A stretch of 64,000 nt of DNA, taken from an uncultured Candidatus Saccharibacteria bacterium (GTDB lineage: Bacteria; Patescibacteriota; Minisyncoccia; Phycocordibacterales; UBA9973). Under the pieces are notes generated by a model. That model was not told the origin of the DNA, ran no database searches, and saw nothing but the letters and a program-made list of their open reading frames with translations. Location of the stretch: contig CAYVDC010000001.1 in the NCBI GenBank assembly GCA_964450735.1, positions 5,577 through 69,576 on the forward strand. Reading direction: 5' to 3'. Positions 5,197-25,734 of the stretch are shown here, piece by piece. Every line of letters begins with the position of its first letter. The first letter of the stretch is position 1. The translations under genes were made by a program, and so were the position numbers.

Positions 5197-5220
5197 AAAT
5201 GAACAGCCATTTGGCTGTGT

Positions 5221-5610: not shown

Positions 5611-5831
5611 TTTTTTTCATTTAAAAATAACATAGACTCTTCAATTATCATTTTTCCAACTAAAATGCTGTATTTTTTATATTTTGATATTCCAAATGAT
5701 TCTGAATATCTATCAGATATTTCCTTATGGGAAAACATTTTATTTAAAACATCATTCTTGACCGAAGAGGCTAAGGGCTTCTTCAATTTCTCTCGTATCT
5801 TTTTTTGCATATCTTGTGAAAGAGAGTTCAT
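5601..5831 (-). CDS. hypothetical protein, probably starting at an internal Met
   Basis: Overlaps the upstream gene by 80 nt if the first Met is used. An internal Met would remove the overlap. Confidence 0.25.
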   Translation of the reverse strand: MNSLSQDMQKKIREKLKKPLASSVKNDVLNKMFSHKEISDRYSESFGISKYKKYSILVGKMIIEESMLFLNEKNWI

Positions 5832-6874: not shown

Positions 6875-6880
6875 AATTTG

Positions 6881-7156
6881 TTATTTATGAGCTTTTCGTG
6901 TTTCATATACTTCCCAAATAGCAGAACGCTCTTCTTTGTTGAATGGGGAAGACTCTAAAGCTCGTTTTAACGCCAATTTTCTACCAACTTCTTTCTCAAA
7001 ATTATCTCGTTTAGAACAGCGAGAAATTCCTGTTATCACCACATCTGTATCCATATTCTTAATAAAGGCAATGGTTTCCTGTTGTGATTTGTCAGCAGGG
7101 CGATTGTATCCGAATCCAATTCGGTAGGTTTGATTGTTTAAATTTACAGACTTCAT
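6881..7156 (-). CDS. hypothetical protein (91 aa)
   Basis: ORF on the dominant strand. No assignable motif. Confidence 0.35.
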   Translation of the reverse strand: MKSVNLNNQTYRIGFGYNRPADKSQQETIAFIKNMDTDVVITGISRCSKRDNFEKEVGRKLALKRALESSPFNKEERSAIWEVYETRKAHK

Positions 7157-7380
7157 TGTTATGTTTGGTTTAAATTGTTTTACAATCCAAAGAGCAGTGC
7201 TGTTATTTCAATGATAAGAGCATACCCTATTATTTTCTCAAAAATGTAATTCTTGTCATTTAAGAATAACACCAATTTTCTATATTAGTTTCCATTTTAG
7301 TTCTCATTTTTACATAACTATCTATTAAAACTTGTAAAAATTATATTTTATTGATATTTTACAAATTAAAATTAGAATAA

Positions 7381-8556
7381 TTATATTTTCACAAACTTTT
7401 TATAAGCATCATCGTAATTTTTTCTTCGCTTAGGTCTGTCTCCCCAAAGGTCAGAAAAACTTTCATCATCTTGATAAACTAAACATTCTTTTGATATATA
7501 AAACATTCTATCCATTGGAAAATTTACATAGAAATAATCTATTGTTGTAAAATCTTTCGGATTGTAGCTTAATAATTTATCAAAAAATACATTGTTTACC
7601 AAATAAGCATGTGCGCCATAAACTCCTCCTGTACATTCGTAAATGTTTTCTGTCACTTTTATACAATCGTTGTTTGGCTCTCCTCCTAAATACAATATGT
7701 CCCAATTTTGATTAGGAAGTTCCGATAATAGATTTTTAAACTTCTTTTCAAATCCTTCCATGAAAATACAATCATCTTCAAATATCAGAATATTGCTTAA
7801 ATTTTGCTTCTGAGCCTCTGAAATTATATTGTAATGTGAATATGCTCCTGCCACTTTAAAGTGCTGTCTTGGGTCTTTATTTTTCGTTATACCAAGCGTT
7901 TTAATGTCTTCTTCTGATAATACAGTGGCACTTATTCTTTCTATTGGAAATTGAAAATTGGATGTTTGTTTTTCAAAAGAAATTCTTCTATCGGTTCTTG
8001 TATCAACATTAATGTAAACAGCTTTTTCAATGTTAAATTTAATGTTTTTATTATGAACCCACACAGAATGTCCTTCTTTATAAAAATCATCTTCAAATCT
8101 TTCGTTTACAGCCCTCACTACTCCTTCCCAACAGGGGTCGTAATCATGTCCAGCCATCATCCCCCCATTTTTAAGTTTGGGATACCACAGTTCTATGTCT
8201 TTTTTTACATATTCGTAGGTGTGGTTGGCATCAATATAAATGAAATCAAAATAGTTATTTTCAAATAATGATGCTCCACTATGAGAATCTATTTTGAAAT
8301 AAGTAAATAAATGAGAAATTTGAGAAGTGTTTCGTATGAATTGAACAAAATCTTCTTCATTCTCCCATAAATCTATGGAATATATGTTTAATTTTTTATT
8401 TTGCTTTAAACTCTCAATAACCAAAAAGCTAATAGACTTCCCTCTATAAGTTCCTATTTCAATAACATTAGCCCCATCAGGAAGATTGGAAACAGTTTGT
8501 TTATAAAATTCTTCATAATCAAACCATCCTTCAAGTTTTTGGTAAAAATGATTCAT
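7381..8556 (-). CDS. bifunctional class I SAM-methyltransferase-like N-domain plus glycosyltransferase family 25 (LPS/LOS-type) C-domain
   Basis: N-terminal VIEIGTYRGKSISFL is Gly-rich SAM motif I-like. C-terminal KAVYINVDTRTDRRISFEKQ...GAYSHYNIISEAQ...ILIFEDDCIF... matches GT25 (YVINL.RR.DRR...GC..SH..I...ILEDD). Confidence 0.5.
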   Translation of the reverse strand: MNHFYQKLEGWFDYEEFYKQTVSNLPDGANVIEIGTYRGKSISFLVIESLKQNKKLNIYSIDLWENEEDFVQFIRNTSQISHLFTYFKIDSHSGASLFENNYFDFIYIDANHTYEYVKKDIELWYPKLKNGGMMAGHDYDPCWEGVVRAVNERFEDDFYKEGHSVWVHNKNIKFNIEKAVYINVDTRTDRRISFEKQTSNFQFPIERISATVLSEEDIKTLGITKNKDPRQHFKVAGAYSHYNIISEAQKQNLSNILIFEDDCIFMEGFEKKFKNLLSELPNQNWDILYLGGEPNNDCIKVTENIYECTGGVYGAHAYLVNNVFFDKLLSYNPKDFTTIDYFYVNFPMDRMFYISKECLVYQDDESFSDLWGDRPKRRKNYDDAYKKFVKI

Positions 8557-8748
8557 TTAGTCTAATAGCATTTCTTTTTTAGTTGACGTTTTTTCTTCCC
8601 AAAGTTTATTAGCCAATGATAGAACAGTTGATTTATCTCTATCAGAAAGCGTGTCATATCGACTGAATCCTTTGTAAAAGTTGTCAGGGGTTGATTTGAG
8701 AAACTTAACAGCTTCTTCAAATTCATTGTAATTAAATCTAATTATCAT
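8557..8748 (-). CDS. hypothetical protein (63 aa)
   Basis: Small ORF. Overlaps its neighbour by 4 nt. Confidence 0.3.
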   Translation of the reverse strand: MIIRFNYNEFEEAVKFLKSTPDNFYKGFSRYDTLSDRDKSTVLSLANKLWEEKTSTKKEMLLD

Positions 8749-9185
8749 ATTCTTTTAAGCGATTTTGTTAAAAACTTGATGTAAGCTATCATTATTTTTA
8801 TAAATGACTTTTTAATGAATAAGAATGTTTTTTTCTTCACTTCTTTGCTATGAGAAGGCTTATGTTCTTCATATAAGAGAAGTTTTTGTTTATACCTATC
8901 AATCTTTCCTTTATTACGTTTGTACATTTGGAAAAATTCATCTTTGTTATTATTCCCATCCCTAAATTTCCAAATAGAATCTGATAGGGTGGCAATCCAC
9001 TCTTTTTTATTATCATATTCCTTTACATCGGACATTTTCTTATGATTTTTGTAAAAATTAAGTTCCACAGAATCATAAGTGGGTTTTCTTTGAATAACAA
9101 GATTATAGGGTTCGTTATAGAGATTTATTTCTCTTTCCACTACATCCCCTAAAATCAAATTGTTTGCTTCTAATTGCTCAGTCAT
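8745..9185 (-). CDS. hypothetical protein (146 aa)
   Basis: ORF on the dominant strand. Confidence 0.35.
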   Translation of the reverse strand: MTEQLEANNLILGDVVEREINLYNEPYNLVIQRKPTYDSVELNFYKNHKKMSDVKEYDNKKEWIATLSDSIWKFRDGNNNKDEFFQMYKRNKGKIDRYKQKLLLYEEHKPSHSKEVKKKTFLFIKKSFIKIMIAYIKFLTKSLKRI

Positions 9186-10941: not shown

Positions 10942-11110
10942 TCAATACAATTGACAAAAGACCATCAAATATAAATACACTTATTTGATAATTAGTCAAT
11001 AAGTCTATAATAGAAATAACATCTATAACTAATAGAGTGGTGAGGGCGGCAAATCGCTTTGAAGAAATAGCACCTTTTGAACTAAATAGACTTATTAAAA
11101 ATGATTTCAC
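10847..11110 (-). CDS. small membrane protein (87 aa)
   Basis: Two hydrophobic segments (LTTLLVIDVISIIDLL and LLSIVLIGLGF). Confidence 0.3.
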   Translation of the reverse strand: MKSFLISLFSSKGAISSKRFAALTTLLVIDVISIIDLLTNYQISVFIFDGLLSIVLIGLGFTTIEKFKKSKNEPEINPKGEPEQDSL

Positions 11111-11134
11111 GACACTGTTTTCTTATAAATAGTG

Positions 11135-11629
11135 TCATTTATTCTTTTTAACAGTGTTAGACTTAACTAAATCAATTAATTCTTGTAAACAATAGTAAAC
11201 ATTAGAAAGTCCTGCTTTATCATCTAAAAGAACATTGTAATAAATCTTTCTTGGTTCTTTTTCATATTTCATCTTTTCAAAATATTCTAAAGCAATGGGA
11301 GAATTTTCATTTATTTTATCAAATGGAAGAGAGTGTTCTTTCCAAAACGATTTAACATGATTTTCATCTCTATTTGCCGTAAAAATAATAATATAAGCAT
11401 CTAAATATGTTTTACAATCTCGAACCAACCTCCTCACCATTTCATGTTCCCCGTCAGAGTGCCATTTTTCGATAGTGTCGTCGTGGTCAACTGCTATGAT
11501 GTAATGTGGATATTTTTTATATTCATCCACCATCCTATCCATCACCTTTTGAGGACGCATAAAATAGTCCAATTTACGTTGCTCCTTTATATGTTTTAAA
11601 TTAACTATTTCAAACGGTTTTATTATCAT
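11135..11629 (-). CDS. HAD-superfamily phosphatase-like protein
   Basis: IIAVDHDDTI resembles HAD motif I (DxDxT). NVLLDDKAG resembles motif IV (DD). Confidence 0.4.
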   Translation of the reverse strand: MIIKPFEIVNLKHIKEQRKLDYFMRPQKVMDRMVDEYKKYPHYIIAVDHDDTIEKWHSDGEHEMVRRLVRDCKTYLDAYIIIFTANRDENHVKSFWKEHSLPFDKINENSPIALEYFEKMKYEKEPRKIYYNVLLDDKAGLSNVYYCLQELIDLVKSNTVKKNK

Positions 11630-11870
11630 ATTTTGATATAGTTTTTACAATCCAATCAGAATATCCATCGGGGTTATATGGTTCTAAACCTGCTTCCACC
11701 ATTTCAAAAGTGTTAAATCCTTCTTTATAAGCATTTTTTAGTAAGATGTATAATGCCTGATAGCTTATATTAAATGATGTACTTTTTTCTTCTTCTCTTA
11801 TATTAGTCCCATTCATGTAAATATAAATTTCTATTTTCCACCCCACAATGTAATGCTTTTTCAATATCAC
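11610..11870 (-). CDS. hypothetical protein (86 aa)
   Basis: ORF on the dominant strand. Confidence 0.3.
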   Translation of the reverse strand: MILKKHYIVGWKIEIYIYMNGTNIREEEKSTSFNISYQALYILLKNAYKEGFNTFEMVEAGLEPYNPDGYSDWIVKTISKYDNKTV

Positions 11871-12048
11871 AATGATATATGATGGTTTCTTTTTCAGGAC
11901 TCACCATGCAAGTTATACCCATTAAAGCATTATAAAATTTATCCATATTAAGTCCTTCAAATTTAGAAATAATTTCATCTATTTCAGACCTAACAAATCC
12001 TTGTGGATATTTTGTTTTGAAATTATAAACTTCTTCGCGGATATTCAT
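11803..12048 (-). CDS. hypothetical protein (81 aa)
   Basis: ORF on the dominant strand. Confidence 0.3.
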   Translation of the reverse strand: MNIREEVYNFKTKYPQGFVRSEIDEIISKFEGLNMDKFYNALMGITCMVSPEKETIIYHCDIEKALHCGVENRNLYLHEWD

Positions 12049-12230
12049 TATATTTCTCTTAAAAATAATGTAAGAGCCTCATTCAAATCAGGACTATCAA
12101 CTTCGATTTCTCCATCGCCAACCAAATAATTTCCTGCATAGTAGAATATAGAGATTTCTTCTCCTAATTCTTTTACAATTTTTTCAATAAGTTGTTCTGT
12201 TGTCATTTTATTTTAATTTTTAAAAAGAAA

Positions 12231-12320
12231 ATTCCCCAAGTCTCAAATTTTCCATGCGCATTTCAGAGCCTGTTTACTCATTGAAGCGCATGATAGTTTC
12301 CACTTGGGCTTTCGATTGGG
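12231..12320 (-). repeat. 90-bp imperfect palindrome forming a three-segment hairpin. Paired segments are AATTCCCCAA/TTGGGGAATT, CCCAAGT/ACTTGGG and CATGCGC/GCGCATG. On the minus strand it is followed by TTCTTTTT, so it may act as a terminator or structured RNA.
   Basis: Inverted-repeat arms read directly from the sequence. It lies downstream of the methyltransferase gene that ends at 12467. Confidence 0.45.
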
Positions 12321-12466
12321 GAATTTATTCCGCAATAATTATATACTTTAAACCATTTTCCATTTCAATAAGTTCACCACTATTCATTATTTTGTCAAAA
12401 ATGTCAGGTTCTAATATCGAATAAAACCATTCTATTGTATTTTGAATTATAATCTGTTTCCCTGTT

Positions 12467-12985
12467 TTAGTCTCCATTTTCTGCCATCACCATAAAAGAA
12501 TTGTTTAAATCTATTCCACTGACAAATATATTTTTCCAATCTCTATCTACTAAATAATCTCTTAGAATTGTTGGGGATAGATGATGAATATGTTTCCTAT
12601 TATTCCAACATCTCCAATAAATTTGTGAATAATCAGGAAGATAGAGAAATAATACACCATTGTTTACTAATTTAGTTTTCCAATAATCCAACACTTCCAC
12701 CCAATCATCAATGTGTTCAATACAATGACTACTAAAAATATAATCAAATTGTCCTGATGGGAGATTTAGGGCATGTAATAAATGATTTTCTTCATCATAT
12801 TCATTAAATTCTAAATCAATTGGGATGGAAAAAGGAAAAGCCCAATGTCTATATTTACATCCAACATCAACTCCCCTTCCTTTACAAACATTTAATGCAA
12901 ATGGAATTGCAAATCGAGCCGCATTTCCTTCTGTTTGAAATTTCGGATATGAAGCTCCTTTATATTCTATAACATCAATAGGCAT
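12467..12985 (-). CDS. class I SAM-dependent methyltransferase
   Basis: GRGVDVGCKYRHW matches motif I (G.D.GCG). FDYIFSSHCIEHI is typical of the Methyltransf_11/23 type. Confidence 0.55.
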   Translation of the reverse strand: MPIDVIEYKGASYPKFQTEGNAARFAIPFALNVCKGRGVDVGCKYRHWAFPFSIPIDLEFNEYDEENHLLHALNLPSGQFDYIFSSHCIEHIDDWVEVLDYWKTKLVNNGVLFLYLPDYSQIYWRCWNNRKHIHHLSPTILRDYLVDRDWKNIFVSGIDLNNSFMVMAENGD

Positions 12986-12987
12986 TT

Positions 12988-13605
12988 CTATAAATTCAAA
13001 TAAAAGTTGTTTTGTGATTCTTGCTTTTCAATAGTTTTTATGTGATGAAAGAACATTGTTGGTGGAAGATAGGAATATGTTTTATAATTTGTCAATTTTT
13101 CATGCACTTTATTCATCCATTTTATCCCTTTTCCATTTTTAAATATTCTCCATTGATAATCTTCTCCATTAATGTTCCCAAATCCATCCATTTTCCATCC
13201 CCATTTTTTCAAATGTTCTTGTGTTATTCCTAACACTTTGTTCTTTCTTGGAATTGCAAATATATCAATAACATCGTTCACAATCAATACATTTTTGATA
13301 TATTTTAAAAACAATTCACATGGAATTTCATCAGCATCTATTTGCACTATATATTCTCCTATTGGTGAATAGTTAAATAGTTGATTTTTGAAATTAGCAA
13401 AATGATTATTCAATGGATACCCATAACTTCTAATAGGTGCTACTTCTTTAAACGAATTTATAACACTTTTTACTCCTTCTGTCACTTTAGAAGTGTCATA
13501 TTGGATGATGATTTCATCTTCTATTAATGTCGGAACAAGTGTTGTTAGAAGATTTTTCAATTCATCTTCTTCATCACAAGCTGTAATAAAATATGTTAGT
13601 TTCAT
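12988..13605 (-). CDS. glycosyltransferase family 2-like protein
   Basis: ITACDEEDELKNLL...IIIQYDTS...IVQIDADE matches the GT2 N-terminal pattern with a DxD-like IDADE. Confidence 0.45.
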   Translation of the reverse strand: MKLTYFITACDEEDELKNLLTTLVPTLIEDEIIIQYDTSKVTEGVKSVINSFKEVAPIRSYGYPLNNHFANFKNQLFNYSPIGEYIVQIDADEIPCELFLKYIKNVLIVNDVIDIFAIPRKNKVLGITQEHLKKWGWKMDGFGNINGEDYQWRIFKNGKGIKWMNKVHEKLTNYKTYSYLPPTMFFHHIKTIEKQESQNNFYLNL

Positions 13606-14042
13606 AGTTTATCCAATGAAAGTCCAATAGCAGAACAGGCTTCTTCAAAGAAATGATAGGGAAATAAAACAGATTTTTCAAAATTAGCCCTTCCATCTTC
13701 CTTTGGAGCTATTCTCCATTTACAATCATCTTTATTGCTTCCATCTAAGAACATAATAATATGTTTATTATCAAAAAAGAATGGAGACCAAAAGTTTCCT
13801 TCTTCATCTAAAATAGAAACATCTTTAAATAGTTCGGGAACTGCTTCTGAATCCATGTATTTTTCTGACAATAGTTTTCCATCAATTATTTTATTCATTG
13901 ATTTAACACATGTCAATCCACATGATTTACATATAGAACTATTTAATTCGTTAATAGTGGTGACTTCTTCCCCATTTCCACATGGACATTTTTCAACGGA
14001 AAGTGTATATTCGTTTTCTAATTCAAATTCTTTATCTTTCAT
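13602..14042 (-). CDS. hypothetical Cys-rich protein (146 aa)
   Basis: CPCG...CKSCGLTC cysteine cluster. Translationally coupled to the flanking glycosyltransferase genes. Confidence 0.35.
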   Translation of the reverse strand: MKDKEFELENEYTLSVEKCPCGNGEEVTTINELNSSICKSCGLTCVKSMNKIIDGKLLSEKYMDSEAVPELFKDVSILDEEGNFWSPFFFDNKHIIMFLDGSNKDDCKWRIAPKEDGRANFEKSVLFPYHFFEEACSAIGLSLDKL

Positions 14043-15328
14043 GGCATATTATAATCAAAATTGATAAAATCGGGAAGGACAATTTCTCTTTCGATTGGAA
14101 TAAATTCATCTATAATTTTTTCTAATTCATTTTTCATTTTTGAAAGAGAAAATTTATTAGAATGTATTTGTTGAAGTTTAGCTCCTTTCAAATGTCCTTT
14201 ATAGTCATCGAAAACTTCTTTCATCACTCTCGCCGCATCTTGATAATCAATAGTGAACCATGAAGATTCAGGAATTAACATATCTTTTACAACAGCACTT
14301 CCGTCAATCTTGTCAATTACTCCTCCGATTAAATTAACATATCTCTTATCCAAATAATCAAGATGTCCACTCCAATTTGAAACTACTATTGGCTTTCCTG
14401 CGGATGCCGTAAATTCTAAAATAGGTTTTCCAAACCCTTCTCCCTTAGTAAATGAAACAAAACTCTTCACTTTTCTATGATTGTAGAGTTCATTCATTTC
14501 TTCGTCTGATAATTCTCCATGAATCAAATAGATGTTAGGGAGTATTGATGCTGATACAGAGTTTCTGATAGAATTTATTTTATTTAAAATATCATCTCTA
14601 TCTAAAATTGACGTTGTTGCACCGCTTGTTTTCAATATTAATGCAGGACGATTAGTTGTTTTGTTTTTAAAAGTTTCCAAAAACACTTTAACTAACATTC
14701 CAACGTCTTTTCTATCATGTCCAATGTTTCCTTGAAGCCATGTTCCCACAAATAAAAAACAAAAATCTTCACTAATTTCTCTCATTGTCTCAGAGAGGTC
14801 TTGTGATTTATATTCTTTTATTGAATTTAATGGTTTGAAAATTTCTTCATTAAACCCTTCAAATAACACTTTTATCGGTTTAACCACTTCAATTGGTGTC
14901 ACAGACCCATCAGCTTCATTTCTTAATTCATATTTGGTGTCTAAAAATATCTTTTTAGTAAATTCAGAAGGAACTATAACCAAATCGGCTTTATTACATC
15001 CTTCAATCCAAGCAGATGGAGCTACTGTTGTTTCAATACCGGAAGTGAATAAAATGTTATATTCTCCCACAGGATTAAACTCATTTGGGATACCAACATG
15101 AATATAAACATCAGGTTTTTTAGAAAGAACATTTTCTCTTACATACTTTTTTACAACATCATCATCGGGGAGATAACCAAATTTAGTGTTCCCCCATTTT
15201 AAACTAATTAAATGTATATCCCAATCTTCATGTTTTAAATCTATGATGGATTTACAAATGTCATATGATTTCTTTCCATATCCTGAAAGTGTATCAAAAC
15301 ATGAAGTGATTACAGCATATTTTTTCAC
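14039..15328 (-). CDS. GT-B fold glycosyltransferase (GT4 / Glycos_transf_1-like)
   Basis: C-terminal TKGEGFGKPILEFTASAGKPIVVSNWSGHLDYL matches the E.FG...EA.A.G.PVI...GG motif of retaining GT4 enzymes. Confidence 0.55.
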   Translation of the reverse strand: MKKYAVITSCFDTLSGYGKKSYDICKSIIDLKHEDWDIHLISLKWGNTKFGYLPDDDVVKKYVRENVLSKKPDVYIHVGIPNEFNPVGEYNILFTSGIETTVAPSAWIEGCNKADLVIVPSEFTKKIFLDTKYELRNEADGSVTPIEVVKPIKVLFEGFNEEIFKPLNSIKEYKSQDLSETMREISEDFCFLFVGTWLQGNIGHDRKDVGMLVKVFLETFKNKTTNRPALILKTSGATTSILDRDDILNKINSIRNSVSASILPNIYLIHGELSDEEMNELYNHRKVKSFVSFTKGEGFGKPILEFTASAGKPIVVSNWSGHLDYLDKRYVNLIGGVIDKIDGSAVVKDMLIPESSWFTIDYQDAARVMKEVFDDYKGHLKGAKLQQIHSNKFSLSKMKNELEKIIDEFIPIEREIVLPDFINFDYNMP

Positions 15329-16758
15329 AATGAAATAGGGTGTTTTTGGTAATGTTTGTTTTGTAATTTCTTCACTTTTATAACATCGAATCTACTTCTT
15401 CTCTTAACAGATTGAATGGTGGCTTCTATTCCGTCAATAATACCATTAGCCATGTCCGTAGATTTCATTTTAGCCTCTTGTGAAATAGCCCAAGCTCTCC
15501 CCGCCAATCCACATTCTCTTCTTTCCTCTGATGGGAGTTGATATGTATTATATAGCTCATTAGCCACTTCTTGTGGGTCAACTCTATCATCAAAGATATA
15601 GGGAGTGGGTGGACTTCCTAATAGAGAAATGTTAGAAGGGAATATTGGGATAGCCCATTTTCCACATTTTTTATATTTTCCTCTATGATTGGTTTGAAAT
15701 GTTTCATTAAAATCAATCCAATTTCCTTTTTCATCTTCAAATCTCATTTGGTCTTGAATACCTCCTGTTACATTTCCCAAAATCATTCTACCTGCCATCA
15801 TAGATTCTGTCATCGACAGCCCCCATCCCTCATTAGAAGATATTAACATTGTCACATCAGCACAATTATATAGGAAATTCATCATGTCAATTCCATATTT
15901 TCCATCTGTAAAGAATACGTTGTATTTTTTTTCATCTCCAAACAACATATCTTTTACGGCAAACAAATCTGTTCCATTTACATCTATGGGGTCTGTGTGT
16001 AAAACAAGTCCCACTTTTTCAATTTCCTTATCAGAGAGTTTGTCACAAAATAATTTGAATGAAAGGAGAACGTCAGCAGGAGATTTTCGTCTAATATTAC
16101 GGGAATTCCATAAAGCAACAAAATCTAATTTCTTTCCACCAAATAAATTGTTTTTAAATTCTAAATATTCTTTAGTTTCAATCACAAGTGGATAAAACGC
16201 TTTATGATTGATTCCATGTGGAACAAATGAAGTGTATTTCTCACTTGCTTTATCTCCAAGAACTAATTTATTAATGTTATAGGTTTGTTTTGAAATAGCA
16301 ATAAGTCCGTCACATGATTCATAATAAGGCTTATTGTACATAGGAAGTGGCAGGTCATCCCAAATGTTATAATAAACAATGGGAATTTGAGTTCTAATAT
16401 CTCTTTCTACATTAAAAAGCCATCCATAATAACGTGGGTCTGTTATTATCATTAAAGCATCAGGTTTTTCTGTTTTTATGAGAAATTTAACTAAATCTTC
16501 ATCTCCATACCCATCAACACATATAGTATGAACCCAACTATCTTTTAAATTAGCCACTTCATTCACACTTGTTGACATATCAAATCTAACACCTTTATCG
16601 GGATGATTTTGCAGTCCACCAATACATATCCAATTATAAACATGAGCAGAGTTCACTATAATTTCTCTTGAAATAGTAGCCACTCCACTATGAGTTCTAA
16701 TATCATCACTAATGAGAAGAATTTTTCTTCTATTATCCCTTTCAATATATTTGTGCAT
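15325..16758 (-). CDS. GT-B fold glycosyltransferase (GT4-like)
   Basis: SSNEGWGLSMTESMMAGRMILGNVTGGIQDQM matches the EGFGL...EAMA.G.P.I....GG motif. The N-terminal half is Rossmann-like. Confidence 0.55.
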   Translation of the reverse strand: MHKYIERDNRRKILLISDDIRTHSGVATISREIIVNSAHVYNWICIGGLQNHPDKGVRFDMSTSVNEVANLKDSWVHTICVDGYGDEDLVKFLIKTEKPDALMIITDPRYYGWLFNVERDIRTQIPIVYYNIWDDLPLPMYNKPYYESCDGLIAISKQTYNINKLVLGDKASEKYTSFVPHGINHKAFYPLVIETKEYLEFKNNLFGGKKLDFVALWNSRNIRRKSPADVLLSFKLFCDKLSDKEIEKVGLVLHTDPIDVNGTDLFAVKDMLFGDEKKYNVFFTDGKYGIDMMNFLYNCADVTMLISSNEGWGLSMTESMMAGRMILGNVTGGIQDQMRFEDEKGNWIDFNETFQTNHRGKYKKCGKWAIPIFPSNISLLGSPPTPYIFDDRVDPQEVANELYNTYQLPSEERRECGLAGRAWAISQEAKMKSTDMANGIIDGIEATIQSVKRRSRFDVIKVKKLQNKHYQKHPISL

Positions 16759-16763
16759 AAATT

Positions 16764-16961
16764 TTAATATTGACTTCCTGATATTTTTAAATCCAAATGA
16801 GCCTCTATTTTTTTTCTAAATTCTTCATCGGTGATGTAAAGGTGCATGGCTCTATTTAACAGTTTTTGTTGACTGAAATCGCGCATAATAGCTAAATATT
16901 TAAAACTCTTATGCAGTTCTGTTAAAATATCAGTGGAAGTGAGTTTATTATTCTTATCCAT
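16764..16961 (-). CDS. hypothetical protein (65 aa)
   Basis: Small ORF on the dominant strand. Confidence 0.3.
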   Translation of the reverse strand: MDKNNKLTSTDILTELHKSFKYLAIMRDFSQQKLLNRAMHLYITDEEFRKKIEAHLDLKISGSQY

Positions 16962-17130
16962 ATATCTATATTTTCATATACATATATAGAATATACACAA
17001 AAAAATATATTATTTGTAAAAATAATATATTTTTCCGTCAATTTTACTCAAACAGCCATAAAATTCTTTCATTTCAATATAACATATTCCCATAGAAAAA
17101 ATCAAATAGTCTTTTTTATCAAATGAAGAA

Positions 17131-17487
17131 TTACTGATTATGTTCAATGTAATTAAGTTCTATAAATTTCTTTTGAATTACACCATTTTGATTTAATTCA
17201 TTTTCTGTCCAAAAATAATCATTTATTGTTAAATATTCGACAGCTTGTATGAATTTATTTGAAAAATCTTTTATATCACCAACAATATTTGTTGAAAATC
17301 TTTCAAATATAGAAACAAACGACAGTCCTTCTATTTCTGATTTTTTCTCTCGTGTTATATTGGTGGGAATTCTTGTTAGAAACTTAGCAAAGAAATTACA
17401 ATCATCTACTAAGTATCCATTATTTCTCCTTTCAGGATGTTTTTTATAAAATTCCAATGCTTGTGAAATGAATTCCTTTTCTGTCAT
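17131..17487 (-). CDS. hypothetical protein (118 aa)
   Basis: ORF on the dominant strand. Confidence 0.35.
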   Translation of the reverse strand: MTEKEFISQALEFYKKHPERRNNGYLVDDCNFFAKFLTRIPTNITREKKSEIEGLSFVSIFERFSTNIVGDIKDFSNKFIQAVEYLTINDYFWTENELNQNGVIQKKFIELNYIEHNQ

Positions 17488-17490
17488 TGG

Positions 17491-17826
17491 TTATTTCCAA
17501 AATTGTTCAAAATAATCACTTGGGTTCAAATTTCTCTTTTTGAGAATCAAATATTTATCTTCTTTCGTTAAAGAAAGTTCAGCAAATACATTTTTCTTTT
17601 CTAAAACGGCTGTTATAACACGTTCTGATAGTTCATCTACGACAGGAGTTTCCACAATTTCGGGGGTTTTATTAATTCCAATTTCGGCTTCAAAAGATGA
17701 TTTATAACATTTAATGGTGAGAATTATCCCATCATCTGTTATTTTTCCCTTTGTTATTTCTATTTTTTCAACACTTGCATCTTGCAATATGGTTGAAATT
17801 TGATTAAATAGTTCTGTATTGTTCAT
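17491..17826 (-). CDS. hypothetical protein (111 aa)
   Basis: ORF on the dominant strand. Confidence 0.35.
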   Translation of the reverse strand: MNNTELFNQISTILQDASVEKIEITKGKITDDGIILTIKCYKSSFEAEIGINKTPEIVETPVVDELSERVITAVLEKKNVFAELSLTKEDKYLILKKRNLNPSDYFEQFWK

Positions 17827-18062
17827 TTTATTACAACTTCTCCTTCTAAAAATCCATAATTAGAATGTTCTCTGAAATATTTAACATGCGTTAAAGTGTC
17901 TTCTGTCAACACCCACATGCTCGCATCTTTCCAAGTGATGTTTAAGAATTTTTCATTCTTATTCAAAACTATTTCTGTTTTTCCACCAAATAATTTTGTA
18001 CGTTTATTATCCGTACAACTAAATAAAAAAATTAAAAGGAGTATTAAAAATAATTTATTCAT
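17823..18062 (-). CDS. putative lipoprotein (79 aa)
   Basis: MNKLFLILLLIFLFSCTDNK is a signal peptide with a lipobox-like FSC. Confidence 0.35.
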   Translation of the reverse strand: MNKLFLILLLIFLFSCTDNKRTKLFGGKTEIVLNKNEKFLNITWKDASMWVLTEDTLTHVKYFREHSNYGFLEGEVVIK

Positions 18063-18353
18063 TTATTTTATGTTTTTTAATTTTTCTCCAAAAATTCCTC
18101 TCATTACAATTACATCGTCTCTTAAAACAATACAATGTAGTCCCAATTCATCATCTACACTGTCATTGCAAATGACACTCTGAACATTAATTCCCTTGTG
18201 GACAATGGATGGAATTGGAATTATATGTTTTCCTTTAAAAATGTCCAATTGCGAAAGTTCCTTTTCATACAATTTCAATAAACTATATGAAATCAGCATG
18301 TTTTCTCCACCATTTTTAATGATGAATCGTTTTAATTGCTCAATCATGCGCAA
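18063..18353 (-). CDS. hypothetical protein (96 aa)
   Basis: ORF on the dominant strand. Confidence 0.35.
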   Translation of the reverse strand: MRMIEQLKRFIIKNGGENMLISYSLLKLYEKELSQLDIFKGKHIIPIPSIVHKGINVQSVICNDSVDDELGLHCIVLRDDVIVMRGIFGEKLKNIK

Positions 18354-18388
18354 AATTAAATAGAATATTTGAATATTCCAAATTTTAT

Positions 18389-18859
18389 TTAAGAAATTTC
18401 TGTTGTTTCGTCGTCTTTAACAACATTTGTTTTCTTAATAGGAGCTTGTTTTCCTTTATTAAACTTATTTCTCTTCTTTGAAGGAGTAAAGAACATTGAC
18501 ATATCCGAAGTAACACTTCCCATTCTACTGTCTGGTGGGTTATATCCCGGACGCACCACTCTTTTCTTACGTTTAACAATACGAATATTTTTCATCATAT
18601 CCGTTCTATATAATCTCCATTCAGGAACTCTTCTTCTTTTACTCCATCCACCTACATGCCATCCCGCCACCACTTCATTTCCCGTTTCAATATGATGACC
18701 TAATGTGAATGGTTCTATGAATCTTTTATGGTATTTGTCATCGGGAGTTCCATCAATATTTTTATAAAAGAATTCAATAGCATCGCCATTTTCAATGGCT
18801 TGTTTTATTTTATCTCCATTAATGGATTCTGTAAGAAATTTGACTAAGGAAAGTTCCAA
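18389..18859 (-). CDS. hypothetical protein (156 aa) with a basic C-terminal half
   Basis: ORF on the dominant strand. KRRRVPEWR...KRKKRVV basic stretch. Confidence 0.35.
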   Translation of the reverse strand: MELSLVKFLTESINGDKIKQAIENGDAIEFFYKNIDGTPDDKYHKRFIEPFTLGHHIETGNEVVAGWHVGGWSKRRRVPEWRLYRTDMMKNIRIVKRKKRVVRPGYNPPDSRMGSVTSDMSMFFTPSKKRNKFNKGKQAPIKKTNVVKDDETTEIS

Positions 18860-18876
18860 TTTTTATTATAAATATT

Positions 18877-19623
18877 CTAAACAAGAACGATTCTCCAAAA
18901 ATCACTTGCTAAGTCTTTGTTTAATATAAATTCATATGGAAAATATCCATATCCTCCATCTCCCCATGATGTTCCCCAAGAATTTCTAAACTTAAATAGC
19001 TTTGTTTCATCATCATATCCCACTAAAGCTAAAGCATGTCCTCCTAAAAATTGCTCTGTTGGGTGGGGAATTGGAACTATTCCTGTCTTACTAACAACTT
19101 CTGATTCAAAACTCTCATACACCGAAACACCAATGGCTATACAATATTTTTGAGCTAAACATGACTTAATAGAAATAATGTCTTGATTAACGGATTCATA
19201 TTGTTTGACAGGATGTTGTTTAGCCTCTGTAATACATTTCCTACTTGGTGCTTTTGTAAATTTGTCAATGTTATAAGGGAGAAGTTCTTCTGAACAATAT
19301 CCATTCTTTCCAACACCTTTTATCACATCTCTAATAGTTGCGCCACTATCTTCTTTGATAGTTCCTTCTATTTTTCTAGCTTGGTAATATATCCAAAGTC
19401 TTGATGGGTGAAATTCTGTCAAACTTTCTATTTTACGTCTAACAGCAATTAAAGCGGCTGTTGCATGACTTGTGCATGACCCCAATGCTAATTGGTCGTA
19501 TATAGGAGGACAGAATTCAGTTAAATCAACTTTCTTTGGAAGGTCTTCTACATGAATTTGTGGAGAAAATTTGAAATCTCTTTCGTCTTTCTCTTGAAAT
19601 TTATAGTTGTATATTCTTTTCAT
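18877..19623 (-). CDS. papain-like (C1 family) cysteine peptidase
   Basis: QLALGSCTSHA (active-site Cys), GGHALALVGYDD (His) and NSWGTSWGDGGYGYF (Asn/Trp) appear in the canonical C1 order. Confidence 0.6.
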   Translation of the reverse strand: MKRIYNYKFQEKDERDFKFSPQIHVEDLPKKVDLTEFCPPIYDQLALGSCTSHATAALIAVRRKIESLTEFHPSRLWIYYQARKIEGTIKEDSGATIRDVIKGVGKNGYCSEELLPYNIDKFTKAPSRKCITEAKQHPVKQYESVNQDIISIKSCLAQKYCIAIGVSVYESFESEVVSKTGIVPIPHPTEQFLGGHALALVGYDDETKLFKFRNSWGTSWGDGGYGYFPYEFILNKDLASDFWRIVLV

Positions 19624-19681
19624 TTACCAAACTTTAATATAAATATTTAGTCTGGCTTCTCTTGTTTGATGATATTTTTCA

Positions 19682-20767
19682 TCAATTACTTAATGGAATT
19701 TTAATGAATGGATGGTGTTGATAATTAATTAGTTCAAAATCTGATATGTCATATTCAGAAATATCATCTACCTTCCTATTTTTCACTTTCAATATCGGAA
19801 GTTGATATAAAGGTTTGGTAAATTGAGTTTCAACATATGGAATTTGATTCTCATATACATGAACATCTCCCCCATCAAATATTAATTCATCAGGAATCAT
19901 GTTCACTTCTTTAGCAATGATTTCTAATAAAAGAGCGTACACCATCATATTAGTTGGAAGTCCAAGAGGAAGGTCTGTACTTCTCATATTAAACTTTAAA
20001 GAAAGAGCTTTAGTTGGAATATTAGCCCAATTCAATTCTTGCTCAATTTGTTCGTTTGAAACTCCCTCGTAATTTTGCCCTACATTGAACGATATTCCTC
20101 CCGATGATACAATCCTATGGAAATAATTAAATCGTTCGTTAAAAGTCAAATTTCGTGCGTTAAATTGGAAGTTTGTATGACATGGATTTAACACCATTTC
20201 ATTTAACCGAGAAACATCCCAATTATCCACTAAAATTCGCCTACTATTTGGATTGTTTTTTAATTCCTTAATAGCGTTAGCTATTTGGTCGATTTTGCCT
20301 TCCTCTGATGAAAAATTTCTCCATTGATAGGGATACAGTGGGCCGACATCTCCAAACTTTTTACAAAAAACATCGTCTGTTAAAACACGTTGTTCAAATT
20401 CTAAAAAAGTAAAACCCCTAACTTTATTTTCTTGAACATCTTCTATCAAATAATCATAATCAGGCTCTTCAAGTGTGTTTGTAAAATTCAAATAACTTTG
20501 ATAACAATCCCCAGTCCATATGTGACAATTGTTTTCTAAAAGAAATTTAATAGAGGTGTTTCCTTTTAAGAACCAAAGAAGTTCAACAACAGCATTATTA
20601 AAATTTATTTTTCTACTTGTTAGAATTGGGAATCCGTCTGACATTTTATGTCTTATTGTTCTTCCAAAAACACTTAATGTTTTCCCATTTCTCCCTTCTT
20701 TTTCATATCCATTATCTAAAACATCTTGTAAGATGCTTAAATATTGTTCTTCATAACTTTTATTCAT
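19682..20767 (-). CDS. thyA: thymidylate synthase family enzyme (ThyA/Td type; dUMP-specific Asn retained) with two insertions
   Basis: Near-identical blocks to E. coli ThyA: DGFPILTSRKINFNNAVVELLWFLKG, GKIDQI...LKNNPNSRRIL, LNPCHTNFQFN (catalytic Cys), and MRSTDLPLGLPTNMMVYALL (Arg/Asp and the dUMP-specifying Asn). A roughly 50-aa insertion follows IWTGD, as in the L. casei and T4 type. A second insertion of about 45 aa follows the PCH motif. Confidence 0.8.
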   Translation of the reverse strand: MNKSYEEQYLSILQDVLDNGYEKEGRNGKTLSVFGRTIRHKMSDGFPILTSRKINFNNAVVELLWFLKGNTSIKFLLENNCHIWTGDCYQSYLNFTNTLEEPDYDYLIEDVQENKVRGFTFLEFEQRVLTDDVFCKKFGDVGPLYPYQWRNFSSEEGKIDQIANAIKELKNNPNSRRILVDNWDVSRLNEMVLNPCHTNFQFNARNLTFNERFNYFHRIVSSGGISFNVGQNYEGVSNEQIEQELNWANIPTKALSLKFNMRSTDLPLGLPTNMMVYALLLEIIAKEVNMIPDELIFDGGDVHVYENQIPYVETQFTKPLYQLPILKVKNRKVDDISEYDISDFELINYQHHPFIKIPLSN

Positions 20768-20787
20768 AAAATTTTTCTTTATTGGTT

Positions 20788-21315
20788 TTAAAATGAATAA
20801 GATTCTTCTGTTGCAGGAATATATCGTCCTTCCACCTCTTTTATCAATCCAAACTTTCCATCTTTCACCCCATAAATCATTTTTTTAATTTTTGGTTGAA
20901 GAGGAAAAGAATAAAAAATGGTTGAATTTCCTTTATAAACTAATTCAATACAGGTGTCTTTTACAATTGTATCAATTAATTCCCATTTTATGAAATTATC
21001 TGTTGCTATTGTCACACTATTTCCACCATTTATTTTTAAAGAATTAGCATCAGATGTAAGATATGAAATCCCAGAGATTGTTCCACATCCTGTGAGCTGA
21101 ATAGTTCCTGTTTTTACTTCTTCTTTCTTTTCTTCTAATGGAATTGCCCATTTTTTAGCAAACCTTTCATCAGTGTCAATTTTCACTATAAAATTTTGAA
21201 ATGTCAAAGAAAGAGCCGAAGATAACATTCTCTCAAAGTCAGCATCTCCATCATAACGATTCAAATATTTTGAATAAGAAGCCTTGTAATCAATTTTTGT
21301 TGTTTTGTTTTTCAT
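20788..21315 (-). CDS. hypothetical protein (175 aa)
   Basis: ORF on the dominant strand, between thyA and the GMP-reductase-like gene. Confidence 0.35.
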   Translation of the reverse strand: MKNKTTKIDYKASYSKYLNRYDGDADFERMLSSALSLTFQNFIVKIDTDERFAKKWAIPLEEKKEEVKTGTIQLTGCGTISGISYLTSDANSLKINGGNSVTIATDNFIKWELIDTIVKDTCIELVYKGNSTIFYSFPLQPKIKKMIYGVKDGKFGLIKEVEGRYIPATEESYSF

Positions 21316-21318
21316 TGT

Positions 21319-21549
21319 TTATTGTAATTTAACTTTTTGTAAAAATTTAGATAGGAAGTCACATCTTTCATATTGTTCTGTTTCTTCATAGAACTTTATC
21401 ATTTTTTCTATTCTTGAAAATGAAGAACTATCAATTTTCTTTAGGTTTTTTAAATTAAAGAGGATGATGTAATATAAATTATATTCTTCTTCCAATGACA
21501 CTTTTCTATTTTCAATAGGTTTTTCTGCATAAGGAAATTGCAATTTCAT
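21319..21549 (-). CDS. hypothetical protein (76 aa)
   Basis: Small ORF. Confidence 0.3.
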   Translation of the reverse strand: MKLQFPYAEKPIENRKVSLEEEYNLYYIILFNLKNLKKIDSSSFSRIEKMIKFYEETEQYERCDFLSKFLQKVKLQ

Positions 21550-21582
21550 TATTTTATCCGATTATATTAATAATCAAAATCT

Positions 21583-21804
21583 TTATTTTTGTTTAATGTT
21601 AGGAGTTTTATGATAGGAATTAAAAAATCCATCAATAATACTTGAATATTGATTTGGATATTCCACTTCAAACATTCCATCCAAAGGATTGACATCTGTG
21701 ATGTTAAAACTGAATATTTTATTAGCTTGTTCAAATTTCCTTTTGATTTTATTGAAAATTTGTAATATTCGTGCTTTCTCTTCTAATTTGAATGATTTTT
21801 TCAT
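21583..21804 (-). CDS. hypothetical protein (73 aa)
   Basis: Small ORF. Confidence 0.3.
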   Translation of the reverse strand: MKKSFKLEEKARILQIFNKIKRKFEQANKIFSFNITDVNPLDGMFEVEYPNQYSSIIDGFFNSYHKTPNIKQK

Positions 21805-21810
21805 CTGAAT

Positions 21811-22758
21811 TTAATATAAATATCCATATTTCACTGAATTAAAACAGGATAGGGTAGTTCCTCCCCCATATGAAATTGAAGATTGTAAGTCTTCTTTCAT
21901 TTCTTCATATTTTTCTAAATAAGTCATGGGTGTATATTCGATTTCAATTCTTTTTCCTTCAATATTTCTATTATGTCCTTTGGTATATTCAGACGCAGAG
22001 CCATAATATATTTTTCTCATTCCTGTAACGGTGTTAATAGTTTCTGATGGGCTATCACTTAAAGAGGCAAACATTCCTCCCACCATCACCATTGTTGCTC
22101 CTGCCACTAATGCTTTAGGAATGTCTCCATTTTCTCTAATTCCTCCATCTGCTATAATGGGGAGAGTGCTTTGTTTTGAACATTCCAATACAGCATCAAA
22201 TTGTGGAAATCCAAATCCTGTTTTGTTATATGTAATGCAACTTTTTCCCATTGCTATTCCCACTTTAATAGCATTCACTCCACACTCAGTTAAATACTCA
22301 ACTCCTTCCTTAGTTGCTACATTTCCTGCTATAATAAATGCGTTATTAAATACATTTTTAATGTTATTTATTGTATTTTTAATTAACAATGAATGTCCAT
22401 GTGCAATGTCAATAGTGATACAATCTACATCATTTCCATTTTCTTTTATTCTCTTTAACATTTCAATATCTTCATCTTTTACTCCTATTGAAAGAGAAAT
22501 ATATTTGTTTTCATTTCTGAGAGAATAATCTTTCACCCAATTAATTATTTCCTCCTGAGAATAGAATCTATGAAGAATGTAAAAATAATTATTTTCAATA
22601 AGTTGTTCAGCTATATTAAAATCTATTACACATTTCATATTTGAAGGAATAATAGGGAGACCCCAACAGCGATTGGCAAAATAAACACTTGTTTCCGCTT
22701 CGCTTCTGGTGGTTAATGTTGAACATTTAGGAATTAAATAGATTCTGTTATAACTCAT
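21811..22758 (-). CDS. IMPDH/GMP-reductase family enzyme lacking a CBS domain (GuaC-like, 315 aa)
   Basis: CITIDIAHGHS, IIAGNVATKEGVEYL...NAIKVGIAMGKSCITYNKTGFGFPQFDAV (catalytic Cys loop) and IIADGGIR...GATMVMVGGMFA match the IMPDH/GMPR TIM barrel. The length and absent CBS domain favour a GMP-reductase-type enzyme. Confidence 0.65.
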   Translation of the reverse strand: MSYNRIYLIPKCSTLTTRSEAETSVYFANRCWGLPIIPSNMKCVIDFNIAEQLIENNYFYILHRFYSQEEIINWVKDYSLRNENKYISLSIGVKDEDIEMLKRIKENGNDVDCITIDIAHGHSLLIKNTINNIKNVFNNAFIIAGNVATKEGVEYLTECGVNAIKVGIAMGKSCITYNKTGFGFPQFDAVLECSKQSTLPIIADGGIRENGDIPKALVAGATMVMVGGMFASLSDSPSETINTVTGMRKIYYGSASEYTKGHNRNIEGKRIEIEYTPMTYLEKYEEMKEDLQSSISYGGGTTLSCFNSVKYGYLY

Positions 22759-23849: not shown

Positions 23850-23917
23850 GAAAGGAAAATGGAGCAAAAGTTGAAACCTTAATAACAACCAAACACCAGA
23901 ATCGTTTTTAAGCCACC

Positions 23918-23999: not shown

Positions 24000-24095
24000 G
24001 AGGGGGTTTCTTAATTTTAAAATATTTTTTCAATATATTTGGAAAGTTTAATAATTTGTTCTACCTTTGCATAGAATTTAAAACCAACAGAAAAT

Positions 24096-25729: not shown

Positions 25730-25734
25730 AACAT

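Follow-up and report, generated by a model that had tools for sequence, protein, structure and literature searches.

A conserved glycosyltransferase operon of aquatic T4-like phages and its possible acceptors

Introduction

Clusters of glycosyltransferase (GT) genes are among the commonest unexplained gene sets of large aquatic phages, and published genome papers on such phages list three possible roles for them, namely the modification of DNA, of the host surface and of the virion. One such cluster lies at 12467-16758 of the stretch of DNA analysed here, a 64-kb segment (positions 5,577 to 69,576 of contig CAYVDC010000001.1, assembly GCA_964450735.1) that is referred to below as the window. 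The window is part of a phage genome of about 185 kb and is recognizable as a T4-like myovirus segment by its gp20 portal, gp21-type protease, gp25, gp6-like wedge protein and T4-type terminase. Given these three roles, the question raised by the locus is what its enzymes build and on which acceptor they build it.

An earlier note, made from the sequence itself, had described the locus as five contiguous genes encoding a methyltransferase (MTase), a GT2, a Cys-rich protein and two GT4 enzymes, and had thought first of a sugar hypermodification of the phage DNA. We find that the cluster is one copy of a conserved and phage-restricted operon, in which genes for a ribbon-helix-helix (RHH)-like protein, two GT4 enzymes (GT4a and GT4b), a zinc-ribbon (Zn-ribbon) protein and a GT-A enzyme are followed by variable tailoring genes. 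The evidence available from the sequences favours a virion protein over DNA as the target, and autonomous glycosylation of phage proteins, most probably those of the virion, is the best, although still tentative, reading of the operon.

A conserved operon restricted to phages

The list of open reading frames (ORFs) and the domain scans agree on the five contiguous genes of the cluster. Adjoining genes overlap by 4 nucleotides (nt) at three junctions (GTGA, ATGA and ATGA) and are separated by gaps of 5 and 2 nt at the others, so that the translational coupling proposed earlier is a reasonable assumption and probably holds. The conserved unit begins one gene earlier than had been thought, with the ORF of the RHH-like protein (Table 1).

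No near-identical DNA was found among the phages in GenBank. With tblastn, orthologues of GT4a were detected in the cultured Flavobacterium phage vB_FspM_immuto (Immutovirus; 53% identity; hereafter immuto), Microcystis phage Mel-JY01 (40%) and Rhodothermus phage RM378 (30%), as well as in an uncultured huge phage (34%). The GT4a family comprises at least 8000 protein clusters at 90% identity, the best of which are all about 53-57% identical, and is carried by at least 599 IMG/VR contigs; a protein identical to GT4a itself occurs on contigs of up to 184.7 kb. An operon found on that many contigs is very common in aquatic T4-like and far-T4 phages, and the earlier impression that it was something out of the ordinary among T4-like phages has to be given up.

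The core was defined by clustering the ORFs of 84 related loci. GT4a is present in all 84, GT4b in 81 and the RHH-like gene in 78, while the Zn-ribbon gene was found in 56 of those whose length sufficed and the GT-A gene in 48-53. This order, with a gene for a basic PD-(D/E)XK nuclease (PDDEXK_1) in front, holds down to 39-49% GT4a identity. The nuclease gene (in locus L001 at 7822-8763) stands immediately 5' of the RHH-GT operon in 81 of the 84 loci, and in relatives it is itself preceded by a small protein of the DUF1599 or DUF3310 type and a clamp loader. It is not in the 64-kb window, where the operon copy has moved away from it, and the linkage is therefore not obligatory. A PDB profile search with the immuto nuclease gave nothing useful.

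Among 185,579 species genomes of cellular organisms, relatives of the core turned up in only 13; the contigs that carry them all belong to metagenome-assembled genomes (MAGs) and have phage gene order, and the core can therefore be regarded as phage-restricted. The clear homology to host capsule or O-antigen pathways that the earlier note had named as an argument against DNA modification is accordingly lacking for the core. Genes orthologous to those of the window stand in the same order (RHH-like, GT4, GT4, Zn-ribbon, GT2) in immuto (gp182-gp169) and in Mel-JY01. Mel-JY01 shares with the window also the small MTase (50% identity) and a nearby GMP-reductase-like gene. In the place of the single MTase of the window, immuto carries further GTs together with aminotransferases, an epimerase and an acetyltransferase. 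In RM378 (p013/p014), the GT4a orthologue is the only one confirmed by similarity search, and the 425-amino acid (aa) p014 may be its paralog partner, judging from its size and position.

The 6 kb downstream of the core are hypervariable: 249 ORFs in 34 loci fall into 108 clusters, with a median pairwise Jaccard index of 0.08. This tailoring region encodes mostly nucleoside diphosphate (NDP)-sugar 4,6-dehydratases, epimerases, reductases and DegT aminotransferases, and is also rich in extra GT2 and GT10 enzymes and in sugar C- and O-methyltransferases. Soluble, virus-encoded GTs thus share one cluster with MTase and NDP-sugar genes.

Enzymes of the operon

GT4a and GT4b fall in one BLAST cluster and, going by sequence and model, are predicted to be GT4-type enzymes with a two-Rossmann GT-B fold and a C-terminal EX7E motif, which is invariant in both paralogs (E310/E318 in GT4a, E297/E305 in GT4b). 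The Pfam family Glycos_transf_1 matches GT4a above the gathering score (2.2e-6) and GT4b under it (8.8e-5), and phrog_2170 matches both (2.5e-10 and 7e-20, respectively). The AlphaFold2 (AF2) model of GT4a has GT-B topology at a predicted local distance difference test (pLDDT) score of 88.5, and its N-terminal (acceptor) domain is highly conserved across the family. By sequence profile, the best solved relative of both paralogs is B736L of chlorovirus NY-2A (4e-8 for GT4a, 1e-4 for GT4b), followed by generic retaining GT4/GT5/GT20 enzymes; identity to B736L is only about 18%. Foldseek likewise places B736L first for GT4a (8.8e-15), ahead of generic GT4/GT5 enzymes. In a viral structure library the neighbours of GT4a are giant-virus GTs and uncharacterised phage GTs, among them a 484-aa protein that we infer from its length alone to be the RM378 orthologue and a 533-aa protein that is probably chloroviral.

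The GT-A enzyme is weakly matched by Pfam GT2 when searched as a single sequence (E=0.039). A profile of 31 sequences of its family aligned in the PDB with the GT domain of GmaR (3.2e-14; query 3-202, chain 11-190), and further with SunS (2.7e-8), GalT1 (4e-7), a ThuS-like protein (1.4e-6) and TarP (4e-6). GmaR is the Listeria flagellin O-GlcNAc transferase, and SunS and ThuS are glycocin S-glycosyltransferases. Residues D90-A-D92-E93 and V167-H168 are invariant in the family, and the alignment with GmaR spans both the DxD region and the R-I-x-K-N...V-H-E region. With its DxD and its full-length alignment, the enzyme is predicted to be a catalytic domain of the GmaR/SunS-like kind, although GmaR and SunS carry C-terminal substrate-binding or TPR regions and the phage protein is a bare catalytic domain. 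A profile search for cellular relatives returned results filled by phage sequences.

Between GT4b and the GT-A gene lies the gene for the Zn-ribbon protein, which combines an N-terminal CPxCG...CxxCG with a conserved W/P-rich C-domain. It has no Pfam, PHROG or NCBIfam match, and a PDB profile search returned only zinc-ribbon noise. It is possibly an adaptor or an acceptor-recognition subunit. An exhaustive search of 1.84 billion representatives for fusions of this protein yielded 19 representatives, all but two stand-alone, and revealed no fusion or other link that would make it the substrate-binding domain of the GT-A enzyme. The sole non-phage-like match there, a weak one to three PAS repeats of a histidine kinase (E=2.6e-6), may hint at a PAS-like fold or be due to chance.

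The MTase gene at the 3' end of the operon is not part of the core, since it occurs in 2-3 of the 84 loci, including Mel-JY01 and one Bacteroidales MAG contig, and invariably as the next gene 3' of that for the GT-A enzyme. Its atypical motif I, G-x-D-x-G-C, is kept in its two homologs. The equivalent slot in relatives is taken by TylF, FkbM, Methyltransf_14/23/24 or NDP-sugar enzymes, and the window protein is a probable sugar O-methyltransferase. MTase-domain matches in Synechococcus phages are uncharacterised small ORFs. MTase-domain similarity to mycobacteriophage proteins was considered as a bridge to cassettes of the Che8 type and was dismissed, the protein concerned (Boilgate gp84) being isolated and outside any GT cassette.

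At the other end of the operon, the RHH-like gene lies directly upstream of GT4a, in divergent MAG loci as well. Its product matches the Arc-like repressor family phrog_3180 (1.3e-4) and Pfam Antitox_RHH (0.024), and its family has a strand-helix-helix conservation pattern and a median isoelectric point (pI) of 8.85. A PDB profile search found no solved relative, and from its sequence the protein is a putative DNA-binding regulator. No specific NCBIfam family was found for any protein of the module. All of them have a maximum 19-residue hydropathy below 1.3 and no transmembrane (TM) segment. The RHH-like protein and the nuclease of the relatives are basic, unlike the enzymes and the Zn-ribbon protein, which range from acidic to neutral.

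Further glycosyltransferases outside the operon

Two more proteins of the window carry GT domains. The first is the MTase-GT25 fusion, a soluble protein of pI 5.3 with related ORFs in only 4 related loci, which from its sequence would be an additional glycan-tailoring enzyme outside the operon. The second closes the tail-fibre block and is probably expressed late. It matches phrog_4417 at aa 14-323 (4.4e-67) and GT2 at aa 346-469 (1.4e-8), with an invariant HDSDI in the N-domain and a WDDDD in the consensus of the C-domain, and is thus predicted to hold two GT-A domains in one chain, each with a DxD. Its AF2 model (pLDDT 91) has K4CP as best Foldseek match (2.4e-13), followed by LARGE1, PmHS2 and CHSY3; the alignments with K4CP and LARGE1 run end-to-end over 620-720 columns at a low template modelling score (about 0.26), the domain arrangement being different. 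The multi-enzyme glycosylation cluster recognized earlier is thus borne out by domain, profile and fold matches alike. The window encodes two MTase domains and, with the dual GT-A protein, six GT domains, where four GTs had been counted earlier. In the tail-fibre region, a 1529-aa fibre-like ORF at 40082-44671 (plus strand) carries a DUF11 repeat domain (2.5e-15).

The phrog_4417 family occurs stand-alone (about 290 aa) in head-morphogenesis modules of Gram-positive siphophages, namely Enterococcus VPE25-like, Lacticaseibacillus and Clostridium phages, and in other proteins the domain forms fusions with GT2, GT7C, GT6, FkbM/Methyltransf_24 or radical-SAM domains. This suggests that phrog_4417 is a GT family not recognised as such so far and associated with virion genes. 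Mel-JY01 (locus L110) encodes two further proteins of interest in its structural block, next to a gene annotated as structural protein and just before the terminase: a 1226-aa 'FkbM methyltransferase' with a GT4b-like domain (4750-8430) and a 639-aa cytidylyltransferase-like protein (11243-13162).

Possible acceptors of the glycan

The choice among DNA, envelope and virion targets was said by the earlier note to lie beyond sequence alone, and this still holds; the evidence nevertheless bears unequally on the three. Since the core and the acceptor domain of GT4a are conserved across phages of unrelated host phyla, those of Flavobacterium, Microcystis, Rhodothermus and diverse MAG bins, the acceptor would be intrinsic to the phage and independent of the host, and a conserved phage-intrinsic acceptor together with a lineage-variable glycan periphery fits the glycosylation of phage proteins best. 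Several observations are consistent with virion proteins as the target. The core is absent from cellular genomes apart from the few MAG contigs mentioned above, and the closest solved relatives of the GT-A enzyme (GmaR, SunS, the ThuS-like protein and GalT1) act on cytoplasmic proteins or peptides. The GT4 enzymes are nearest to chlorovirus B736L and giant-virus GTs. The enzymes lack TM segments and are acidic to neutral, and the composition of the tailoring genes matches that of giant-virus and surface-glycan clusters. Extra multidomain GT and MTase enzymes lie in the late structural blocks of the window and Mel-JY01, and phrog_4417 lies in the head modules of siphophages. The glycosylation of phage virions by phage GTs also has precedent in the literature.

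According to this reading, the soluble cytoplasmic enzymes would draw on nucleotide sugars of the host, or in relatives on phage-made ones, and build a short glycan directly on an acceptor encoded by the phage, the most probable one being virion proteins. The three conserved GTs would make a conserved inner part, and the outer part, often methylated, would differ between lineages. The MTase-GT25 fusion and the late-block dual GT-A protein may add further residues. Conjectural within this scheme are which sugars serve as donors, in what order the enzymes act, whether the Zn-ribbon protein is an adaptor and, above all, what the acceptor is.

A number of points weigh against virion proteins as the target. 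The operon lies in the leftward block of early and nucleotide-metabolism genes, and the relatives carry it within the replication module, where the PD-(D/E)XK nuclease and the clamp loader are its neighbours. The candidate late element TATTTATAYAAAA, described below, is absent from the intergenic region upstream of the operon. No function can be transferred to the GT4 enzymes from B736L, for which no acceptor is known, and their generic neighbours BshA, MshA and sucrose-phosphate synthase are the same as those reported for the DNA arabinosyltransferases of RB69 and DLP3. The GT-A enzyme also matches GT2 enzymes that do not act on proteins (TarP, chondroitin synthase and polysaccharide synthases), albeit more weakly than GmaR, and the GT2 relatives of GmaR themselves include teichoic-acid as well as polysaccharide enzymes. 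With GTs of proven action on virions (Che8 gp110, Corndog gp38 and PBCV-1 A064R), no homology was detected at the sequence level, and tblastn with GT4a and the GT-A enzyme showed none to the GTs of Che8, Corndog and Myrna. No literature on glycoproteins or DNA modification in immuto, RM378 or Mel-JY01 was found.

The alternative that survives best, although we consider it unlikely, places the glycan on the host. The soluble GTs would remodel the envelope by acting on undecaprenyl-phosphate-linked intermediates, on lipopolysaccharide (LPS) or lipooligosaccharide cores or on a general O-glycosylation glycan, and it is improbable to the same degree that the infected cell would thereby display a phage-specified glycan leading to superinfection exclusion or keeping progeny off debris. 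GT4, GT2 and GT25 are families typical of LPS and O-antigen synthesis, and the accessory pathways of the tailoring region (GDP-mannose dehydratase, RmlD, DegT and PglD-like enzymes) are typical of O-antigen and capsule loci. The position in the early block fits as well, the dual GT-A protein resembles the capsule polymerases K4CP and PmHS2, and a host-envelope role has been proposed in the literature for the GT clusters of pelagimyophages. However, the operon encodes no initiating phosphoglycosyltransferase, flippase, polymerase or TM protein. Among the best 25 of the 33 families matched in domain scans of the 81 window ORFs, there is no integrase or other temperate feature and no membrane-transport family. 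Furthermore, phages of Bacteroidota, Cyanobacteria and Rhodothermota, hosts with differing envelopes, share the conserved core with its acceptor domain, and the family is nearly absent from cellular genomes.

A modification of the phage DNA is distinctly less probable. Here the GTs would act on the DNA after replication, with the RHH-like protein and the PD-(D/E)XK nuclease as DNA-directed partners. The setting of the operon amid replication and nucleotide-metabolism genes speaks for such a role, as do the link to these two basic proteins, which is kept down to about 40% GT identity, and the DUF1599 ('nucleotide modification associated domain 1') or DUF3310 proteins just upstream in relatives. 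Phage DNA GTs are known to have been recruited from GT-A and GT-B enzymes of the LPS and teichoic-acid type, and their best structural matches (BshA, MshA, sucrose-phosphate synthase and TarP) overlap those of the window GTs.

Against this stands the finding that no base-hydroxylating route could be identified. An acceptor-making enzyme would be betrayed by a ThyA homolog with N177D, L143D/E or D169N, or by a DNA C5-MTase together with a TET/JBP dioxygenase, and neither was seen in the ThyA proteins and the listed families described here. L143D/E tracks hydroxymethyl products and D169N marks 5-hydroxy-deoxycytidine monophosphate synthases (Lee et al., 2026). In the ThyA proteins of both the window and immuto, L143, D169, N177 and the other active-site residues are canonical, and a role of ThyA as hydroxymethylase or hydroxylase was rejected on these grounds. 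As to its overall build, the window ThyA has an insert of the L. casei/S. aureus type and a second one of about 50 aa (aa ~205-254) between the strand of the catalytic Cys and the R166 region, at the same place where the 423-aa ThyA of immuto has an insert. The complete genome of Mel-JY01 holds the GT module and has no ThyA-family gene and no 7-deazaguanine (Que/DpdA) genes. Neither TET_JBP nor a DNA C5-MTase is among the best 25 of the 33 families matched in the window, nor among the best 25 of 64 families matched in 12 divergent loci by the 148 ORFs that lie 5' of the module. With a canonical ThyA, a module that exists without ThyA in Mel-JY01 and no TET/JBP among the families listed, hypermodification in the manner of T-even phages, the idea with which the earlier note led, is not supported. 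The lack of an adjacent ThyS or 5mYOX gene is in itself shared with most surveyed GT contigs (65%; Pyle et al.), which counts in favour of DNA as the target.

Special similarity to known DNA GTs is missing too. In the fold comparison suggested earlier, neither the alpha- nor the beta-GT of T4 was among the best 50 PDB matches of GT4a, and an annotated 'DNA alpha-GT' came only at rank 36 in the viral structure library. By tblastn, GT4a and the GT-A enzyme showed no relation to the GTs of RB69, DLP3, RL38J1 or any T-even phage. The GTs are acidic, the window copy of the operon has moved away from the nuclease, and the accessory genes make methylated deoxy and amino sugars, which to our knowledge have not been reported on DNA. 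Immuto, moreover, already has a separate and complete set of 7-deazaguanine DNA-modification genes (FolE, QueD, QueE, QueC, QueF and DpdA at 18607-37015 of NC_055915.1, locus L089). Eukaryotic queuosine glycosyltransferases are GT4/GT2 enzymes, and QueF lies near the module in two further loci (L006 and L022). A general tie between the module and 7-deazaguanine modification was nonetheless rejected, and the module does not depend on that modification, because the window and the complete Mel-JY01 genome have the module without any gene of that pathway.

Slightly less credible still is a free or small-molecule glycoconjugate, such as a glycolipid, a compatible-solute-like glycoside or a storage or extracellular polysaccharide, or else the glycosylation of host proteins. 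The nearest characterised GT4 enzymes, namely BshA, MshA, TreT, sucrose-phosphate synthase and monoglucosyl-diacylglycerol synthase, do produce glycolipids or glycosides of small molecules, and the dual GT-A protein resembles disaccharide-repeat polymerases; however, all these matches are weak and fold-generic, the NCBIfam scores lie far under the cutoffs, and a metabolic product is difficult to square with tailoring genes that vary so much and with a family so strictly confined to phages. Very improbable, and least credible of all, is a DNA glycosylation that dispenses with the known acceptor-generating enzymes (ThyA-type hydroxylases or hydroxymethylases and TET/JBP) and acts on the backbone, on a canonical base or on one made by an unrecognised enzyme, in which the RHH-like protein would direct the enzymes to the DNA and the nuclease would remove unmodified DNA.

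Genomic context and control elements

The window has a GC content of about 29-30%, and the direction of transcription flips near 24 kb. The neighbours reported earlier, namely nrdAB, ThyA, the GMP-reductase-like gene and the MTase-GT25 fusion, were all found (Table 1).

At the 3' end of the operon, the 50-aa ORF is called as a gene on identical contigs and has no homologs in the other loci of the comparison set. The structured element that follows has a minimum free energy of -33.1 kcal/mol (z = -3.25 against shuffles) and is modelled as a terminator-like 3' boundary of the operon; a plus-strand ORF across it (12254-12424) is probably spurious. No Rfam family was found in 11000-24500. The AT-rich intergenic region upstream of the operon presumably holds its promoter, and scans for sigma-70 promoters and terminators gave matches at chance level only.

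The motif TATTTATAYAAAA has 10 matches in the window against 3.2 expected, a number reached in none of 100 shuffles. Nine of the 10 share the strand of the local coding sequence; they mostly lie 8-25 nt 5' of start codons and chiefly in the structural block, which makes the motif a candidate late promoter or leader element. The late promoter of T4, TATAAATA, was discarded as a candidate in the window, since only its reverse complement is enriched, and this as part of another motif.

Some further genes of the window deserve mention. A papain-family cysteine protease (Peptidase_C1, 1.7e-14) is encoded at 18877-19623 on the minus strand, in the leftward block, with the late-type motif upstream at 19633-19645. 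Beside it, a 156-aa ORF (18389-18859, minus strand) has a weak WYL-domain match under the cutoff (5.9e-4). Domains of the IS605/TnpB type are also among those found in the window ORFs (Cas12f1-like_TNB, 2.5e-23; HTH_OrfB_IS605, 2.1e-15); their likely carrier is the 283-aa ORF at 2593-3444 (minus strand), which has RuvC/HNH-type PHROG matches, and the ORF at 53397-54683 was checked and is not the carrier. A HAD-type protein with a DHDDT motif I (11135-11629, minus strand) belongs to phrog_1238, labelled 'phosphoheptose isomerase'. For its homologs, which occur in Bacillus, crAss-like and Lak phages, the annotations vary between phosphatase, hydrolase and polynucleotide kinase, and in crAss-like phages the homolog adjoins a ribose-phosphate pyrophosphokinase. 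As it has no PDB relative and the annotations of its homologs are inconsistent, it was not retained as a counterpart of the sugar-phosphate phosphatase of RB69 and DLP3.

Table 1. Features of the window and of related loci discussed in the text (coordinates are those of the window unless a locus is named)
Feature	Position	Strand	Remarks
Five-gene cluster	12467-16758	minus	co-directional, overlapping or abutting ORFs
AT-rich intergenic region	16962-17130	minus	169 bp, upstream of operon
RHH-like protein	16764-16961	minus	65 aa, basic, first operon gene
GT4a	15325-16758	minus	477 aa, predicted retaining-type GT-B (GT4), most conserved core enzyme
GT4b	14039-15328	minus	429 aa, predicted GT-B paralog of GT4a; GTG start overlaps GT4a stop
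Zn-ribbon protein	13602-14042	minus	146 aa, acidic, core member
GT-A (GT2) enzyme	12988-13605	minus	205 aa, predicted GmaR/SunS-like, core member
Class-I methyltransferase-like protein	12467-12985	minus	172 aa, lineage-variable accessory; Methyltransf_23, 4e-10
50-aa ORF	12325-12477	minus	overlaps methyltransferase stop by 11 nt; coding status uncertain
Structured element	12215-12335	minus	121 nt, ends in U-run UUUUCUUUUU; between operon and next gene
Methyltransf_24-GT25 fusion	7381-8556	minus	391 aa; Methyltransf_24 at aa 32-139 (Pfam 2.9e-20), GT25 at aa 182-290 (5.6e-9)
Dual GT-A protein (predicted)	47663-49495	plus	610 aa; closes tail-fibre block, overlaps preceding fibre-block ORF
nrdA			cut by left edge of window
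nrdB	644-1594		
ThyA	19682-20767	minus	Pfam 5e-79
GMP-reductase-like gene	21811-22758		NCBIfam PRK05458, 1e-101, slightly below cutoff
TATTTATAYAAAA sites	31746, 32054, 38395, 52286, 54688, 58659, 62214	plus	
TATTTATAYAAAA sites	19633, 21810	minus	
Stand-alone phrog_4417 gene	5001-5873 of L092		
Stand-alone phrog_4417 gene	5001-5879 of L093		

Meaning and comparison with known systems

Orthologous clusters were already known from immuto, Mel-JY01 and RM378, where they had been annotated only; what is new is one defined and sharply conserved operon in at least 599 viral contigs and three cultured phage-host systems. Should virion proteins be its target, autonomous glycosylation would be widespread among environmental bacteriophages, whereas the examples known so far are giant viruses and a few actinobacteriophages. 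This would bear on host recognition, particle stability and grazing and on the reading of 'auxiliary metabolic' sugar genes in viromes, and the diversity of O-antigens would have its phage counterpart in the hypervariable tailoring region. The improbable route to DNA without known acceptor-generating enzymes would, if true, amount to a new and environmentally widespread DNA modification with complex methylated deoxy- and amino-sugar glycans. Even if the target is DNA or the host envelope, the definition of the operon names the genes for experiments.

Compared with seroconversion modules (GtrABC/Wzx/Wzy), which have membrane parts (flippase, polymerase, GtrA/GtrC), a temperate lifestyle and close homologs in host polysaccharide loci, the operon showed none of these features, integrase and membrane-transport families having been looked for among the best 25 of the 33 matched in the window. 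The known systems of DNA glycosylation, i.e., the alpha- and beta-GTs of T4 acting on 5-hydroxymethylcytosine, the arabinosylation of 5-hydroxycytosine in RB69 and DLP3, RL38J1 and the clusters of methyltransferase and 5mYOX genes, resemble it in that GT-B and GT-A enzymes are also clustered near nucleotide-metabolism genes, but they have a base-hydroxylating step that was not found for the window operon.

A functional precedent for virion proteins as the target is provided by the mycobacteriophages Che8 (gp110), Corndog (gp38) and Myrna, in which phage GTs decorate capsid and tail-tube proteins, although this cassette has no detectable sequence relation to the operon and belongs to another phage group and another host envelope. 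The giant viruses infect eukaryotic algal or amoebal hosts, and the glycosylation of their particles is known, whereas the operon is known from its genes alone. In gene content they nevertheless come close: in chloroviruses (PBCV-1 A064R, A546L/B736L) and in the fibril clusters of mimivirus, soluble GTs, methyltransferases and NDP-sugar enzymes are clustered as in the operon, and both giant viruses and the phages that carry the operon have multidomain GT-GT or GT-MTase proteins.

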